DNA of 64,000 nt from Escherichia phage JY01. Below the pieces are notes generated by a model. It worked only from the letters and a program-made list of their open reading frames with translations, was not told the origin of the DNA and did not search any database. The stretch lies in the sequence record OR995200.1; one strand, written 5' to 3'. The position numbers and the translations under genes were made by a program. This document shows positions 32,259 to 41,799 of this stretch, in pieces (positions within the stretch are counted from its first letter, which is position 1; each line of letters opens with the position of its first letter).

Positions 32259-32732
32259 TTATTTGAACGATTTAACGTACTGAATAGAACCCTTACTATT
32301 CACAAAGGCAATTTTACCATTTTTATTATACATGGTAGCAGTACGCTGATAACCATAGGTTTGTTTACCAGATTGATAACCAACTAATGCAAAATTATCT
32401 TCACCCATTTTATTCTGTTTAGCGCGAATGCGTTCATGACCATGTGCCATAAGAACCTTAGCATCACCAGTTGCAATGGATCGACGAGTTTTTTCATCTT
32501 CAACTGCATTAACAAAGTCGTCAAATGAATCAAATTTAGCATGAGATTTATTATACAATTTTCCATCTACTGCATAATTATATCCCTGTACATCCATCTC
32601 AACTTCTGTACCATCATCCAATACAGCAGTAATTTTTTGACCTTTTTTAAATTTCAAAAGATCAGTAAAAGATTCAGCAATAATTTGAGAATTAATAGCT
32701 GCTTCAGTGATAAATTCTTGATATGTTTTCAT
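32259..32732 (-). CDS. Internal-protein-like head protein with capsid-targeting leader
   Basis: 157-aa ORF starting MKTYQEFITEA, the T4 internal-protein leader type; late promoter TATAAATA about 35 nt upstream. Confidence 0.6.
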   Translation of the reverse strand: MKTYQEFITEAAINSQIIAESFTDLLKFKKGQKITAVLDDGTEVEMDVQGYNYAVDGKLYNKSHAKFDSFDDFVNAVEDEKTRRSIATGDAKVLMAHGHERIRAKQNKMGEDNFALVGYQSGKQTYGYQRTATMYNKNGKIAFVNSKGSIQYVKSFK

Positions 32733-32741
32733 GTGTTTCCT

Positions 32742-33158
32742 TTAAATGTAAATATTTTTACCGTAGTATTTATACCAGTGTGGCTTCATTAAAATTTTTT
32801 CATCGAGTCGTTGTTGACTCAATTTAATAGCTGATTTGCATGGATTATAATCATTTTTCCATTCTGCTGGAATATCGCTGATGTCAGGAACTTCAGTATC
32901 TTTTATATTGAACCCACGTTTTAAGCATTCCGTTATAATGTCTGATTGACGCTTTCGCAAAAATTCTAACTTATCGTAAAAGAACGTAACATGACCAGAG
33001 CCTAAAATAAACTCGGAAGATATTTTAAAATCTTTAACCCGCTTACCATTTGCCACATGTTTACGAACTATACCAAAAACGCGTGGCAATTCACGGTATT
33101 CTGCGATTAAATGTTGATCAGCAAGTTCAGATACTAAAGTCAAATTAATACGAGTCAT
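32742..33158 (-). CDS. denV: Endonuclease V (pyrimidine-dimer DNA glycosylase) DenV
   Basis: 138-aa [20 protein letters not shown]…; recognised as T4 DenV but visibly diverged. Confidence 0.9.
32767..32774 (-). promoter_or_regulatory. Late promoter (gp55-type TATAAATA)
   Basis: TATAAATA on minus strand about 35 nt upstream of the internal-protein-like gene at 32732. Confidence 0.65.
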
Positions 33159-36674: not shown

Positions 36675-36704
36675 ATTATATCATGCTACTTAAGAGATGT
36701 AAAC
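36675..36704 (-). promoter_or_regulatory. Early promoter
   Basis: Minus strand: GTTTAC, 18 nt, TATAAT; upstream of 36039..36632. Confidence 0.5.
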
Positions 36705-37194
36705 TATTTTTAATTTTACAAATTCGTTCAGCTTCTTCAACAGCGGCAGTGATAATGCTTTTAGCTATAGGAGTACTAATACTAGTAGCTTTTACACTTA
36801 ACACGATTTCTTTATCTTTACCAGGCCAACCCCACGATTTTTCACCATGGGTGCCTTTAATTACAGCAGACACCTCAAGTGAGCATCCATTATCGCATGT
36901 TTTTACATTAACAACCCAAGTGTCACTTTTCTCAACCGGTTTATCCCAGTAAATATTAAGAATACGTGGAACATCAAATTTAGCAGGGCAAATCTTAACC
37001 GTAAGACCTTCGCTTTCTAGCCAATTAATAAGAGGGCGTTCATACATGCGGCGATGTGGGCTTTGAACTCGACAAGCTTTGTACCCATTGCTTGCGGCTT
37101 CACTAAGCTCTTCTAATACCTGCTTTTGCATTATTGATAAGATACCATCAAAAGATTTTTCGGAAGTTTCATTCAGTTCGGTATAAAGAGACAT
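36676..37194 (-). CDS. Hypothetical protein
   Basis: Track ORF trimmed to MSLYTELNET, which is preceded by GAGGAAA. Confidence 0.5.
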   Translation of the reverse strand: MSLYTELNETSEKSFDGILSIMQKQVLEELSEAASNGYKACRVQSPHRRMYERPLINWLESEGLTVKICPAKFDVPRILNIYWDKPVEKSDTWVVNVKTCDNGCSLEVSAVIKGTHGEKSWGWPGKDKEIVLSVKATSISTPIAKSIITAAVEEAERICKIKNSLHLLSSMI

Positions 37195-37211
37195 AACAGT
37201 TTTCCTCAAAT

Positions 37212-37250: not shown

Positions 37251-37514
37251 TTATTTCATATTATTGAAATATTCTTCTGCGATTTCGTCGTTATCATGGT
37301 AAACTTTAGAAGACAGTTTAACATAACCTTCAGCAGTGAACATGTTAATCACAACCTTTACAGTATACCACTGACCATCTTCATTACCCATTACTGCATA
37401 GGTTTCAAACATCGGATGATCAGGACCGATAACTTTAATATCATTCACCGTACGACCGAAATCTTCTGAAACACATTTCATAAAGAAGTTGAACAGTTCA
37501 CCGTAATTATCCAT
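37251..37514 (-). CDS. Hypothetical protein
   Basis: Track ORF trimmed to MDNYGELF; upstream GGAG belongs to the promoter/UTR module. Confidence 0.45.
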   Translation of the reverse strand: MDNYGELFNFFMKCVSEDFGRTVNDIKVIGPDHPMFETYAVMGNEDGQWYTVKVVINMFTAEGYVKLSSKVYHDNDEIAEEYFNNMK

Positions 37515-37556: not shown

Positions 37557-37587
37557 TATAGTACCATAGAAGAACAGGGATGTAAAC
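37557..37587 (-). promoter_or_regulatory. Early promoter with conserved 5'-UTR module
   Basis: Minus strand: GTTTAC, 17 nt, ctatgGTACTATAC AACTATCAACTACTGA. Confidence 0.6.
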
Positions 37588-37715
37588 AGTTTTGTGAAAA
37601 ATTTTTAAAAAGTTTTGGGGAATTCTAGGGCAGGGAGGGGAAATCAAAGGATAGGATAATATATTATAAAGGGTAGAAACTAAATGATGTCTAGAGAGGC
37701 CTGGAAAGGCCTAGA

Positions 37716-37747
37716 TACCAAAAAGCCCCAACCTTTCGGCTAGGGCT
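37716..37747 (-). terminator. Rho-independent terminator downstream of the internal-protein-like gene
   Basis: Minus strand stem AGCCCUAGCC/GGUUGGGGCU with GAAA loop followed by UUUU. Confidence 0.6.
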
Positions 37748-37754
37748 AAGAATG

Positions 37755-38228
37755 TTATTTGATTTGTTTAGCAGACCAAATGCGGTCTTTAATAATTTTT
37801 TGGATATCTTCAACATACTCAAGAGAGTGAGCATGTGGGTTATCTTTGAAACTATAAGCACGAGCTAGTTTTTGGCCTTCAGTTTTGATTACTAAAAGCT
37901 CTTTAAGGATAGCTTCATATTTGGAGATAATTCCTTTAACAATATTTTTCTCTTGTGCGACTTTAGGATCTGCTTTAGGAGCAGGTTTACCCGAAGCCTT
38001 TGCAAAAGCAGCGCCAGTAGCAACTAAACTTTTCCAGGCCATACTAACTGCATTTCCCGTAAATCCTTCCGCTTTCATGTCGCGTGCGAACTGGAATCGT
38101 GATTCATCAGAAGCATCTTTGTAAGAATATTTACCCGCTGCAATGGCTGCTTTTGCGACAGCTTGAATTTCGGTGCTAGATGCTTCATTTAACACCGCTT
38201 CATTTAAAAATTGAGTATATGATTTCAT
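37755..38228 (-). CDS. Internal-protein-like head protein with capsid-targeting leader
   Basis: 157-aa ORF starting MKSYTQFLNEA; late promoter upstream; terminator hairpins on both sides. Confidence 0.6.
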   Translation of the reverse strand: MKSYTQFLNEAVLNEASSTEIQAVAKAAIAAGKYSYKDASDESRFQFARDMKAEGFTGNAVSMAWKSLVATGAAFAKASGKPAPKADPKVAQEKNIVKGIISKYEAILKELLVIKTEGQKLARAYSFKDNPHAHSLEYVEDIQKIIKDRIWSAKQIK

Positions 38229-38268
38229 CTTATTTCCTGTTTTAATTCGTGGATTTAATATACTACTA

Positions 38269-38276
38269 TATTTATA
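38269..38276 (-). promoter_or_regulatory. Late promoter for internal-protein-like gene
   Basis: TATAAATA on minus strand about 40 nt upstream of ATG at 38228, right after the terminator U-tract. Confidence 0.65.
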
Positions 38277-38305
38277 CCAAAAAGCCCCAACCTTTCGGTC
38301 GGGGC
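38274..38305 (-). terminator. Rho-independent terminator at the end of the tRNA/stable-RNA unit
   Basis: Minus strand stem AGCCCCGACC/GGUUGGGGCU with GAAA loop followed by UUUUU. Confidence 0.65.
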
Positions 38306-38353
38306 TAAGCCTTGCGGCAACCTTGTCGGGGTTCCACCTGCTAAGGCAAGTGT

Positions 38354-38514
38354 TTGTACGAAACGCCGGGATTCGAACCCGGTTATTAAGCAGTTGACGC
38401 TACTCAATATTTTTAAAAGGCCATATCTCGACCATATCCGAACGTTCCGTCAAAAACGCTACTCGGCTTACGGCAAAGATATTTCCTCGAATCGATAATT
38501 CGGTGCGCCGTTTC
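38354..38514 (-). ncRNA. Candidate tRNA-like stable RNA (compare T4 species 1/2 RNAs)
   Basis: Perfect T-arm-like element CCGGGTTCGAATCCCGG, complementary ends AGAAACG/CGTTTCG, no ORF, terminator immediately downstream. Confidence 0.3.
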
Positions 38515-38615
38515 TGCTGTGATGTAAGAGGGCATCAATAAACGCAAAGATTATTAACGCAATTCCTTACTCAGGGAACATCAGTCCGACGACTTACCGG
38601 TAGCGACCCGGTTTC

Positions 38616-38966
38616 TTAATATTCTTTTAAAGCATCAATCTGTTTACGGCGTTCACGCCATAAATCAATTGCTTCATACGCGGATTCAACATTTCGAATT
38701 GGACGGCATTTATATAAAGATTTGTGATTTTGATATTGCGTAGATAACGGAATTTTATCTAAAAGGTCTTTACGTTCAAAGTATTCGTAACCATCTAAGC
38801 CAAATGAACGATTTTTGAGAAATTGCCAATGACCAAATTCGTTTTGAATATAAATATAATCCGCATGTTGATAAAGTAAATTAATTTCACGAAATGAGAT
38901 ATGTTTTTCATATTCATTGAAGTAAAATGTTAAATCATGAACTACTAAATAAACATTACCTTTCAT
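38616..38966 (-). CDS. Hypothetical protein within the tRNA region
   Basis: 116-aa ORF between tRNA-Arg and the stable-RNA candidate. Confidence 0.45.
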   Translation of the reverse strand: MKGNVYLVVHDLTFYFNEYEKHISFREINLLYQHADYIYIQNEFGHWQFLKNRSFGLDGYEYFERKDLLDKIPLSTQYQNHKSLYKCRPIRNVESAYEAIDLWRERRKQIDALKEY

Positions 38967-38984: not shown

Positions 38985-39060
38985 TGGTCGAGGCAGTAGG
39001 GATCGAACCTACGACCTAGGACTTAGAAGGTCCTTGCTCTTCCTTCTGAGCTATGCCCCG
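38985..39060 (-). tRNA. tRNA-Arg (anticodon UCU)
   Basis: 76-nt cloverleaf read by hand; anticodon loop CUUCUAA; T-loop GGTTCGATCC; CCA encoded. Confidence 0.8.
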
Positions 39061-39064
39061 TAAT

Positions 39065-39140
39065 TGGGGTGACCGATGGGAGTCGAACCCATGACTACGA
39101 GAATCACAATCTCGAGTTCTACCAACTGAACTACGGCCAC
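39065..39140 (-). tRNA. tRNA-His (anticodon GUG), no encoded G-1
   Basis: 76-nt cloverleaf GTGGCCG…; anticodon loop TTGTGAT; discriminator C; CCA encoded; 5' flanking base is U. Confidence 0.65.
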
Positions 39141-39254
39141 ATTAATACCTACTCCAACAATCAAGATGTCTTCACACGAAATTAAGAGAAGAGTGATCAG
39201 TTCAACCCCTATAATCGCGTCAAGTAGATATTAATGTGACAGTTGTCACAAATT

Positions 39255-39329
39255 TGGCGGACGTGATAGGATTCGAACCTATAACCAATCGCTTAACAGG
39301 CGATCGCTCTGCCATTGAGCTACACATCC
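39255..39329 (-). tRNA. tRNA-Asn (anticodon GUU)
   Basis: 75-nt cloverleaf GGATGTGTAGCTCAATGGCAGAGC…; anticodon loop CTGTTAA; CCA encoded. Confidence 0.75.
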
Positions 39330-39333
39330 AAAT

Positions 39334-39420
39334 TGGTGGGGAGTGATGGAGTCGAACCACCCGAGTCGCAATGACAATGAATTTACAGTCCACACCGCTA
39401 CCTCTACGGGATAACTCCCC
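39334..39420 (-). tRNA. tRNA-Tyr (anticodon GUA), long variable arm
   Basis: 87-nt class II cloverleaf; anticodon loop CTGTAAA; 3-bp D-stem; CCA encoded. Confidence 0.7.
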
Positions 39421-39433
39421 TTAATTCATAATT

Positions 39434-39508
39434 TGGTGGCCCTGGGTGGAATTGAACCACCATCTGGCGATTATGAGTCGCTTGCTTGAACCTTCCAGCT
39501 ACAGGGCC
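39434..39508 (-). tRNA. tRNA with CAU anticodon (Ile2 by T4 synteny, or Met)
   Basis: 75-nt cloverleaf; anticodon loop CTCATAA; lies 1 nt downstream of tRNA-Thr, as in the T4 Thr-Ile dimer. Confidence 0.7.
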
Positions 39509-39509
39509 T

Positions 39510-39585
39510 TGGTGCTGATTGACGGAATCGAACCGCCGACCTTCTCATTACAAGTGAGTTGCTCTACCTACTGAGCTAAATCAGC
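39510..39585 (-). tRNA. tRNA-Thr (anticodon UGU)
   Basis: 76-nt cloverleaf GCTGATTTAGCTCAGTAGGTAGAGC…; anticodon loop CTTGTAA; CCA encoded. Confidence 0.8.
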
Positions 39586-39590
39586 AAAAC

Positions 39591-39680
39591 TGGCGGAGGT
39601 GATAGGATTCGAACCTATGAATCGCCGGAGCGACTGCCGGTTTTCAAGACCGGTGCATTCAACCACTCTGCCACACCTCC
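39591..39680 (-). tRNA. tRNA-Ser (anticodon UGA), long variable arm
   Basis: 90-nt class II tRNA; anticodon stem CCGGT/ACCGG with loop CTTGAAA; CCA encoded. Confidence 0.75.
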
Positions 39681-39682
39681 AG

Positions 39683-39756
39683 TCTCCATACAAGGATTTG
39701 AACCTTGGACCTCCTGATCCCAAATCAGGCGCTCTACCAAACTGAGCTACACGGAG
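39683..39756 (-). tRNA. tRNA-Pro (anticodon UGG), CCA not encoded
   Basis: 74-nt cloverleaf; anticodon loop TTTGGGA; 2-nt spacer to tRNA-Ser (Pro-Ser dimer arrangement). Confidence 0.75.
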
Positions 39757-39766
39757 TAAATTAAAT

Positions 39767-39840
<74 letters not shown>

Positions 39841-39845
39841 AAATT

Positions 39846-39932
39846 TGGTGCGAGAAGTGGGACTCGAACCCACAAGGAAATCATTCCGCAGCATTTTAAG
39901 TGCTGTGCCTTTACCAATTTGACCATTCTCGC
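39846..39932 (-). tRNA. tRNA-Leu (anticodon UAA), long variable arm
   Basis: 87-nt class II tRNA; anticodon stem CAGCA/TGCTG with loop CTTAAAA; CCA encoded. Confidence 0.8.
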
Positions 39933-39933
39933 G

Positions 39934-40006
39934 CTGGGAATAAAGGACTCGAACCTTTGCATCCTGGAATCAAAATCCAGTGCCTTACCAACTTGGCTAA
40001 TTCCCA
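39934..40006 (-). tRNA. tRNA-Gln (anticodon UUG), CCA not encoded
   Basis: Starts TGGGAATTAGCCAAGTTGGTAAGGC with U1-A72; anticodon loop TTTTGAT; 1-nt spacer to tRNA-Leu (Gln-Leu dimer). Confidence 0.8.
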
Positions 40007-41541: not shown

Positions 41542-41799
41542 TTATTTTAAATCTTCTAATCGTTTCTTCATCTTAGAACCATTTTTAGCGATTTCTCCTG
41601 CGTCAGAGCATAATGCTAAAAGTGCTTTAACTTTAGTTTGGTCTCCTTTAAAAGACGAAGGATCGACTGCAGCAGCAAGTTCTTTAATACGAGAGAAAAG
41701 ACGCTCAGCTTCAGCTAAAGCCATTCCAAGCTTTACTTCCATACCATGAGAAGATTCAGTGATAATAGTTTCTGTAGCAAACTCTTTATAAGTTTTCAT
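41542..41799 (-). CDS. Internal protein I-like (ipI position, capsid-targeting leader)
   Basis: 85-aa ORF starting MKTYKEFATE, immediately upstream of 57B as T4 ipI is. Confidence 0.6.
   Translation of the reverse strand: MKTYKEFATETIITESSHGMEVKLGMALAEAERLFSRIKELAAAVDPSSFKGDQTKVKALLALCSDAGEIAKNGSKMKKRLEDLK

Follow-up and report, generated by a model that had tools for sequence, protein, structure and literature searches.

What does a T4-like phage gain from placing one small gene between two nearly identical terminator hairpins, at the point where a transfer RNA (tRNA) operon ends and an early transcription unit is about to begin? The question is raised by a stretch of 64,000 nucleotides (nt) from Escherichia phage JY01 (sequence record OR995200.1), hereafter the window, which carries between its homologues of the T4 genes rnaC and e.8 an open reading frame (ORF) of 157 residues that we call gene A. 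An initial annotation of this DNA had described an internal-protein-like gene in an insulated late transcription unit between twin terminators and had suggested modular acquisition. The analysis presented here leads to the view that gene A probably encodes an unannotated internal head protein, packaged and injected, and probably lies in a terminator-insulated late cassette shuffled by recombination between the terminator copies. All cassette features are read on the minus strand and all positions are those of the window (Table 1).

T-even internal proteins, that is T4 IPI, IPII and IPIII, Ip4-Ip10 and later variants, share a leader of about ten residues, MKxYxxFxxE, with a Glu cleavage site (PMC2839356, PMC12373910, PMC9026906). 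The leader of gene A, MKSYTQFLNE, matches the MKTYQEFIAE of T4 IPII and IPIII at Y4, F7, L/I8 and E10, and thereby has the Y4 and F7 of their capsid-targeting sequence. These are the experimentally mapped positions: in a suppressor analysis of IPIII, positions 4 and 7 were found to govern targeting, and positions 8 and 10 processing (review PMC9026906). The motif is also rare, since a search of all six frames of the window for M[KR]x[YFW]xxxxxE returned only three ORFs of at least 50 residues: gene A, one of 85 residues at T4's ipI locus, and IpIV, a known gene that neighbours denV. The likeness to internal proteins put forward in the initial annotation is thus borne out by both the rarity of the motif and the identity of the matching residues.

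Cleavage by the prohead protease gp21 is predicted at L8-N-E10↓A, with a duplicate site at L13-N-E15↓A (the arrow marks the cut), and the alignment of the gene A family shows a conserved L/I/F-x-E↓AS site. In the allele of phage SP21535 the protein begins MKSYAQFLNE↓ASAS, which resembles the MKTYQEFIAE↓AS of T4 IPIII. The second site of the window allele is the product of a five-residue insertion, AVLNE, which duplicates LNE↓A and leaves two candidate gp21 sites in tandem; the alleles of SP21535, RB27 and ATK47 do not have it, and phage sutha has the variant VALNE.

The remainder of the protein fits the same class. Internal proteins of T-even phages are small, basic, rich in Ala and Lys, non-essential and polymorphic among close relatives. 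The predicted mature product of gene A has about 142-147 residues, a mass of 15.5-16.0 kDa, an isoelectric point (pI) of 9.5-9.6, roughly 17-17.6% Ala and 13-14% Lys, to be compared with a pI of 9.3 for IPII and 9.5 for IPIII. Against six alleles the ratio of non-synonymous to synonymous substitutions (dN/dS) is 0.03-0.18, with dS up to 1.6, and gene A is therefore a real gene under purifying selection.

Is the gene equipped to be expressed as a late unit of its own? The late-promoter motif TATAAATA starts 2 nt past the T-run of the upstream hairpin (hairpin 1), overlaps the last three bases of that repeat copy and ends 40 nt upstream of the gene A ATG, a placement that suits a T4 late (gp55-dependent) promoter. 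Between hairpin 1 and the ATG there is no sigma-70-type site, and in phage U115 a ribosome-binding site is annotated a few bases upstream of the homologous gene. The composite GGGGCTTTTTRGTATAAATA, which comprises the stem end, the T-run and the late promoter, is identical in eight of the nine gene-A loci examined, including the one in a Klebsiella Jiaodavirus; the ninth, from Mosigvirus ATK47, has AATAAATA, with one mismatch, in place of TATAAATA. Behind the downstream hairpin (hairpin 2) the sequence reads TATCTAGG, with CTAGG instead of AAATA, so that no second late promoter is formed.

The order of terminator, TATAAATA, gene and terminator is kept in all nine loci, which come from the three genera Tequatrovirus, Mosigvirus and Jiaodavirus, and the insulated layout proposed in the initial annotation is in this sense a conserved one. 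Within Tequatrovirus the 5' arm of the stem varies (GA, AG or TAG), while each variant still pairs, by G-U or A-U, with a GGTT in the 3' arm that does not change. In the Jiaodavirus phiKp_22 the upstream stem differs in sequence and is closed by a UUCG loop, and its downstream hairpin is an unrelated one, yet the elements follow in the same order. This speaks for selection acting on function and not for common descent of the sequence. A terminator and a late promoter under selection would be expected to show such a conserved layout and such arm variants. The unit should yield a late messenger RNA (mRNA) of about 0.55 kb that is monocistronic and shut off from its neighbours on either side.

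The hairpins themselves belong to a 36-nt direct repeat whose two copies are identical at 33 of 36 positions (92%), and no third copy was found in the window even when eight mismatches were allowed. According to a terminator scan each copy has a 10-bp stem with 6-7 G-C pairs and a GAAA loop, followed by TTTTT; both thus have the GC-rich stem-loop with an immediate U-tract that is typical of intrinsic terminators. Folding is strong compared with dinucleotide shuffles, at -21.6 kcal/mol (z = -3.8) for hairpin 1 and -18.5 kcal/mol (z = -3.7) for hairpin 2. The near-identical pair flanking the gene had been correctly recognised in the initial annotation, with coordinates right to within 1-4 nt. 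What the repeat adds is that identity reaches past the stem on both sides, with CTTAG on one and TTTTTGGTAT on the other.

Where does the pair come from? In T4, transcription of the tRNA operon runs through the whole cluster and stops after the species 1 RNA gene, according to a passage in PMC2330249 that cites Broida & Abelson 1985. Hairpin 1 has the same sequence as that T4 terminator and the same position downstream of rnaC. Because T4 and T2 have this hairpin alone after rnaC, hairpin 1 is, by comparison, the resident putative terminator of the tRNA/rnaD/rnaC operon and was not brought in with gene A. The difference lies in what follows: in T4 the hairpin is single and the upstream region of e.8 comes directly after it, whereas in the window there are two copies, the first of which runs into a late promoter. 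The idea that a duplicated terminator belongs to the cassette consequently needs to be amended, as the duplicate is real but its upstream member is resident rather than imported.

How variable is the site among relatives? Fourteen loci fetched from related phages show the rnaC-e.8 gap in one of four states: empty (T4, T2 and 236Ecol005PP), with gene A only (Sa45lw, which is 100% identical to the window around the cassette, RB32, RB27, sutha and SP21535), with a second gene, B, only (ESh24), and with A followed by B (G9062 and U115). The T4 gap holds no gene and a single hairpin followed by GGTATCTAAGCC..., the sequence that stands after hairpin 2 in the window; T2 and 236Ecol005PP likewise have one hairpin and then the sequence that follows copy 2. 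Empty sites accordingly read as the left arm of copy 1 joined to the tail of copy 2. Aligned together, the loci have all their junctions in the hairpin repeat, and the states can be converted into one another by exchange within it. The GenBank record of RB32 already states that the gene A ORF is 'flanked by 34 bp imperfect direct repeat'.

These states are not confined to the phages selected for comparison. The cassette region has at least a partial match in 769 phage records, and an evenly spaced sample of 40 of them contains all four states; judged by spans and coverage, A only is the commonest in this sample, A with B comes next, and the empty and B-only states are minorities. By tblastn, 511 records contain gene A, with a near-full-length match in 467, and 165 contain gene B. 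Phage Bas42 ('AndreasVesalius') of the BASEL collection is another carrier of gene A. Comparative alignment, which the initial annotation had proposed as a check, hence reveals a cassette that is fixed in position and variable in presence, and with T4, T2 and 236Ecol005PP empty the gene is not a constant of this place in all relatives. Gene A shares this polymorphic, non-essential character with the internal proteins.

The cassette is nevertheless not a newcomer. Mosigvirus ATK47 has a 154-residue homologue of gene A at the same place between two hairpins, and in phiKp_22 a homologue of 177 residues follows the tRNA genes (locus L012, 1380-2120), with the leader MKFKEFLAE↓AS and a C-terminal domain unlike that of the Tequatrovirus protein. 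Gene A is, on this distribution, old at the rnaC-e.8 site. As it occupies the same position in three genera, T4 and T2 may just as well have lost it by deletion between the repeats, and their empty site may not be the ancestral one. The modular acquisition suggested initially therefore stands in one half: presence and absence with breakpoints in the repeat agree with a module, but loss is as likely as acquisition. Exchange between the copies may be continuing, as is suggested by variants common to both copies of a genome: the two copies of ATK47 have the same TT stem variant, and the hairpins flanking gene A in G9062 are identical.

Gene B deserves a description of its own. It encodes 187 residues that start with MKTYAEFLTE↓A, and its late-promoter motif, AATAAATA, has one mismatch and ends 38 nt before the ATG (G9062, locus L002, 3392-4100; also in loci L004 and L005). 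Cassette B is followed by a hairpin whose stem is another one, AT-rich and weaker (CCCTATC-TAAAT-GATAGGG), but whose tail, CTTTTTGGTATCTAGG, is the same.

Cassettes of this type have precedents. In RB49, phi1 and other T4-like phages, single accessory ORFs lie between repeated promoter-plus-terminator elements called PeSLs (promoter-early stem-loops), relatives differ by exact excision or insertion with one element left behind, and the cassette is transcriptionally self-contained, so that its neighbours are not disturbed (PMC2839356; PMC4122927). The locus described here shares with them an ORF between direct repeats that contain a stem-loop terminator, and indel breakpoints within the repeat that leave a single element in T4, T2 and 236Ecol005PP, and the A, B and A+B states are related in this same manner. 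It differs in its parts. PeSLs are about 100 bp long and have strong sigma-70-like early promoters, whereas the present repeat is about 36 nt long, consists mainly of a terminator and contains no strong early promoter of either the sigma-70-like or the T4 type; the promoter is a late one and occurs at the upstream copy only. Lambdoid morons are a more distant parallel. They too are accessory genes with their own promoter and terminator set between two established transcription units, but they are not thought to move via regulatory sequences and are usually expressed from the prophage (PMC2839356), whereas in the present cassette exchange takes place, by the junctions, at the terminator copies, and late lytic expression is predicted.

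Internal-protein genes, too, lie in cassettes bounded by repeated regulatory elements. They occupy two variable loci (PMC2839356, PMC12373910) with PeSL-like elements, described as T4 early promoters with weak AT-rich stem-loops in the account of Repoila et al. 1994 relayed by PMC2839356. Gene A differs from them in several ways: it lies between rnaC and e.8 instead of beside 57B or in the ipIII-ipII locus by denV, it is flanked by a late promoter and by a terminator with a GC-rich stem and GAAA loop, it has no sequence similarity to the named members beyond the leader, and its packaging is a prediction. A candidate parallel, late promoters within the repeats of the classical loci, was dropped, as PMC2839356 and the T4 sequence show early promoters and AT-rich stem-loops there.

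The window also carries two conventional members of the class. IpIV (Ip4), which has 157 residues and the leader MKTYQEFITEA, comes after denV and has its own GGTATAAATA within the 3' end of that gene; the PP01 record names it 'ipIV internal head protein', and the T2 record has 'internal virion protein'. No gene occupies the gap between e and denV, where T4 has ipIII and ipII. The 85-residue ORF of the ipI locus, with the leader MKTYKEFATE, is annotated as 'putative internal head protein IP5' in Sa45lw and is flanked on both sides by an early-promoter/stem-loop repeat, cacaaagttgtttaca...gtgatactattacc, the same element as around T4 ipI.

How would such a cassette work? Following established T4 biology, early and middle transcription of the tRNA operon would end at hairpin 1. 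Later in infection, gp55-directed RNA polymerase would start at TATAAATA, which abuts the T-run, and the short mRNA would end at hairpin 2, by which late transcription would be kept out of the early genes e.8-e.1. The leader would direct the protein to the scaffolding core of the prohead, where gp21 would cut it off after E10 and/or E15 (L-x-E↓A); the basic mature protein would stay in the head with the DNA and be injected into the next host. There it would probably disarm a host defence, most likely, by analogy with the characterised internal proteins, a type IV (modification-dependent) restriction enzyme. Between genomes, the terminator copies of about 36 nt would offer the homology for recombination, either with co-infecting relatives or within one genome, by which cassettes could be inserted, deleted or stacked (A, B, A+B or none) while the neighbouring units remain undisturbed.

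The proteins behind this analogy are the following. One GmrSD variant apiece is inhibited by Ip1, Ip2 and Ip3, while ip4-10 yielded no inhibitory target (PMC12373910), and a further leader-bearing protein from the ipI locus of Bas37 blocks McrBC (bioRxiv 10.1101/2025.11.20.689424). All four of the leader-bearing proteins to which a function is assigned thus act on type IV restriction. Gene A has no homology to GmrSD or McrBC inhibitors in sequence and fold searches. We regard a type IV restriction enzyme as less likely than not to be its specific target.

Searches for relatives led no further than the family of gene A itself. It matches PHROG 2280, a family of unknown function, and finds no match in Pfam or in a sequence search of the PDB. 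Among 5.8 billion proteins only 13 relatives were retrieved, all from T4-like phages and none with a functional name. The AlphaFold2 model is all-helical; its N-terminal bundle is predicted with confidence, and its C-terminal portion is a helical hairpin. Family members share the N-terminal domain, and the homologues of Yersinia and Klebsiella phages have a different C-terminal part. Compared with the folds in the PDB and BFVD, the model finds only its own family, and its function can therefore not be deduced from the fold.

Several observations weigh against the proposed identity of gene A and the proposed workings of its cassette. The model is only moderate, with a predicted local distance difference test score (pLDDT) of 73.6 from eight sequences, and neither fold nor sequence searches link gene A to a known anti-restriction protein. 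The gene is labelled 'hypothetical protein' in every record examined (60 listed tblastn rows plus cluster members), and we found in the literature no experimental report of its protein in virions, cleaved or injected. In T4, ipI, ipII and ipIII are preceded by the early-type promoter/stem-loop and not by TATAAATA, so the regulatory layout of the cassette differs from that of the classical loci. The motif TATAAATA by itself is not enriched, with 12 matches in the AT-rich window and 10.5 +/- 3.3 in shuffles; as this is the level of chance, its weight rests on position and conservation. Finally, the repeat is short, at 36 nt, and recombination there is deduced from the junctions.

Whether gene A has been noticed before is a related question. 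A literature search with the RB32/RB69 ORF names or the leader sequence gave no match, its sequence is not in the supplements of the 2025 Ip study, and earlier recognition is possible. Comeau in 2007 reportedly distinguished more than 30 internal-protein variants, and gene A might already be among them.

Which other explanations could account for these findings? The one that survives best accepts that gene A is packaged and assigns it a structural or physical role, for example in neutralising DNA charge or aiding packaging or ejection, instead of the inhibition of a defence. A basic, Lys/Ala-rich and predicted all-helical protein would suit such a role, in T4 heads internal proteins use lysines to contact the phosphates of the DNA (PMC3012670), and ip4-10 also stand without inhibitory targets found. 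The gene is moreover unusually conserved for one engaged in an arms race, with a dN of 0.008 and a dS of 0.23-0.29 within Tequatrovirus. On the other hand it is absent from T4 and T2 and hence dispensable for head function, the homologues in Yersinia and Klebsiella phages have another C-terminal domain in exchange, and each of the four leader-bearing proteins with an assigned function inhibits type IV restriction. A purely structural role is for these reasons unlikely, and an injected protein directed at a host defence remains the preferred reading.

A second explanation denies packaging altogether: gene A would be an ordinary late cytoplasmic protein that is neither packaged nor injected, and the likeness of its leader would be coincidental or vestigial. 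It can draw on the silence of the virion literature, on the lack of any annotation as an internal protein in the records examined, on a location outside the two classical loci and on regulatory elements unlike those of T4 ipI, ipII and ipIII. Against it stand a motif whose only two other carriers among the ORFs in six frames of 64 kb are internal-protein genes, and four mapped leader positions that are conserved in three genera although the other leader residues differ. The conserved L-x-E↓AS context, a composition like that of IPII and IPIII, the near-canonical leader MKTYAEFLTE↓A of the neighbouring gene B and a dedicated late promoter, which suits a prohead component, speak for the packaged internal protein as well, and we consider a cytoplasmic role improbable.

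The weakest alternative holds that the hairpins are two independently maintained terminators, similar through functional constraint or an old local duplication, with the polymorphism created by unrelated illegitimate events; it can cite the Jiaodavirus hairpins, which are not repeats of each other in the same layout, the different stem downstream of cassette B and the short 36-nt substrate, but it is improbable in view of the identity beyond the stem on both sides, of four configurations related by exact exchange within the repeat, of empty sites composed of the left arm of copy 1 and the tail of copy 2, of the variants common to both copies in ATK47 (TT) and G9062 (identical copies), and of the same mechanism being documented for PeSL-flanked ORFs (PMC2839356).

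What does the preferred reading, an injected head protein in a cassette exchanged through terminator copies, add to current knowledge? The logic of the cassette is already known from the internal-protein and PeSL systems; new are a third locus and different regulatory parts. The architecture fits an established paradigm, which makes for little surprise and leaves the paradigm itself unchanged, and it extends the shuffling model to cassettes with late promoters, in which an ordinary operon terminator can double as a homology arm. More tentatively, and with the odds somewhat against it, we propose that the rnaC-e.8 gap may be a third place at which genes of injected proteins insert, one that had gone unrecognised, that the tRNA-operon terminator may serve as its recombination linker, and that A and B might inhibit defences for which no phage counter-measure is known, such as a GmrSD class without an Ip partner. 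For several of the GmrSD classes active against T-even phages no inhibitor is known, and all four capsid-targeted T-even proteins of known function inhibit type IV restriction. Genes A and B, widespread, labelled as hypothetical in all records examined and probably unstudied because they are missing from the model phages T4 and T2, are in this respect well-defined candidates for new injected anti-defence proteins.

Table 1. Coordinates of the cassette, of its neighbours and of the other internal-protein genes of the window, in the order in which the minus strand is transcribed.
Feature	Position	Strand	Remarks
85-residue ORF, ipI locus	41799..41542	-
Eleven tRNA genes	40006..38985	-	start of the region in transcription order
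116-residue ORF	38966..38616	-	between tRNA-Arg and rnaD
rnaD homologue	~38617..38502	-	by alignment to the annotated T4 region
rnaC homologue	~38495..38357	-	by alignment to the annotated T4 region; with rnaD the last genes of the tRNA operon
Repeat copy 1, CTTAGCCCCGACCGAAAGGTTGGGGCTTTTTGGTAT	38309..38274	-	stem 38306..38283, GAAA loop, T-run 38282..38278
Late-promoter motif TATAAATA	38276..38269	-	perfect match to the T4 late-promoter consensus
Ribosome-binding site AGGAAA	38238..38233	-	4 nt upstream of the ATG, read from the sequence
Gene A	38228..37755	-	putative internal (head-packaged, injected) protein of 157 residues; starts MKSYTQFLNEA
Targeting leader of gene A, MKSYTQFLNE	38228..38199	-	residues 1-10
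AVLNE insertion in gene A	38184-38198	-	residues 11-15
Second LNE↓A site of gene A	38192..38184	-	residues 13-15
Repeat copy 2, CTTAGCCCTAGCCGAAAGGTTGGGGCTTTTTGGTAT	37750..37715	-	stem 37747..37724; putative cassette terminator and right-hand recombination boundary
Early-type promoter of e.8	37586..37558	-	TTTACA, 17 nt, TACTAT, extended TG
e.8 homologue	37514..37251	-	next transcription unit; would be shielded by copy 2 from late read-through
177-residue ORF in the e.7 slot	36676-37209	-
GGTATAAATA upstream of IpIV	32774..32767	-
IpIV/Ip4	32732..32259	-

The surroundings of the cassette can be described more briefly. Over 1201 nt (1.2 kb) around it, the sequence is 100% identical to that of Escherichia phage vB_EcoM-Sa45lw, a Tequatrovirus, and the window itself belongs to this genus. 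Upstream, about 260 nt match the T4 stable RNAs rnaD and rnaC almost base for base and are near-invariant over six phages; the coordinates given for the two genes are approximate, having been carried over from the T4 annotation, and an Rfam scan reported only tRNAs, with rnaC and rnaD not reported at the gathering threshold. The 3' end of the rnaC homologue forms a tRNA-like T-arm/acceptor segment (GGTTCGAATCCCGGCGTTTCGTA), and the record of G9062 has a 'tRNA-OTHER' inside the rnaD/rnaC region, between tRNA-Arg and the terminator.

Two further slots near the cassette vary among relatives. The 116-residue ORF upstream of rnaD belongs to PHROG 3355, to which no function is assigned, and is RB69ORF150c-like by its description in ATK47; in T4, tRNA-Arg is directly followed by rnaD, and other relatives have a different ORF or none at this place. 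Just downstream of the cassette, the slot of T4 e.7 is taken by an unrelated ORF of 177 residues. The RB32 record comments on this slot with 'similar to RB69ORF146c, replaces e.7', and other relatives have a 58-residue ORF or no gene there.

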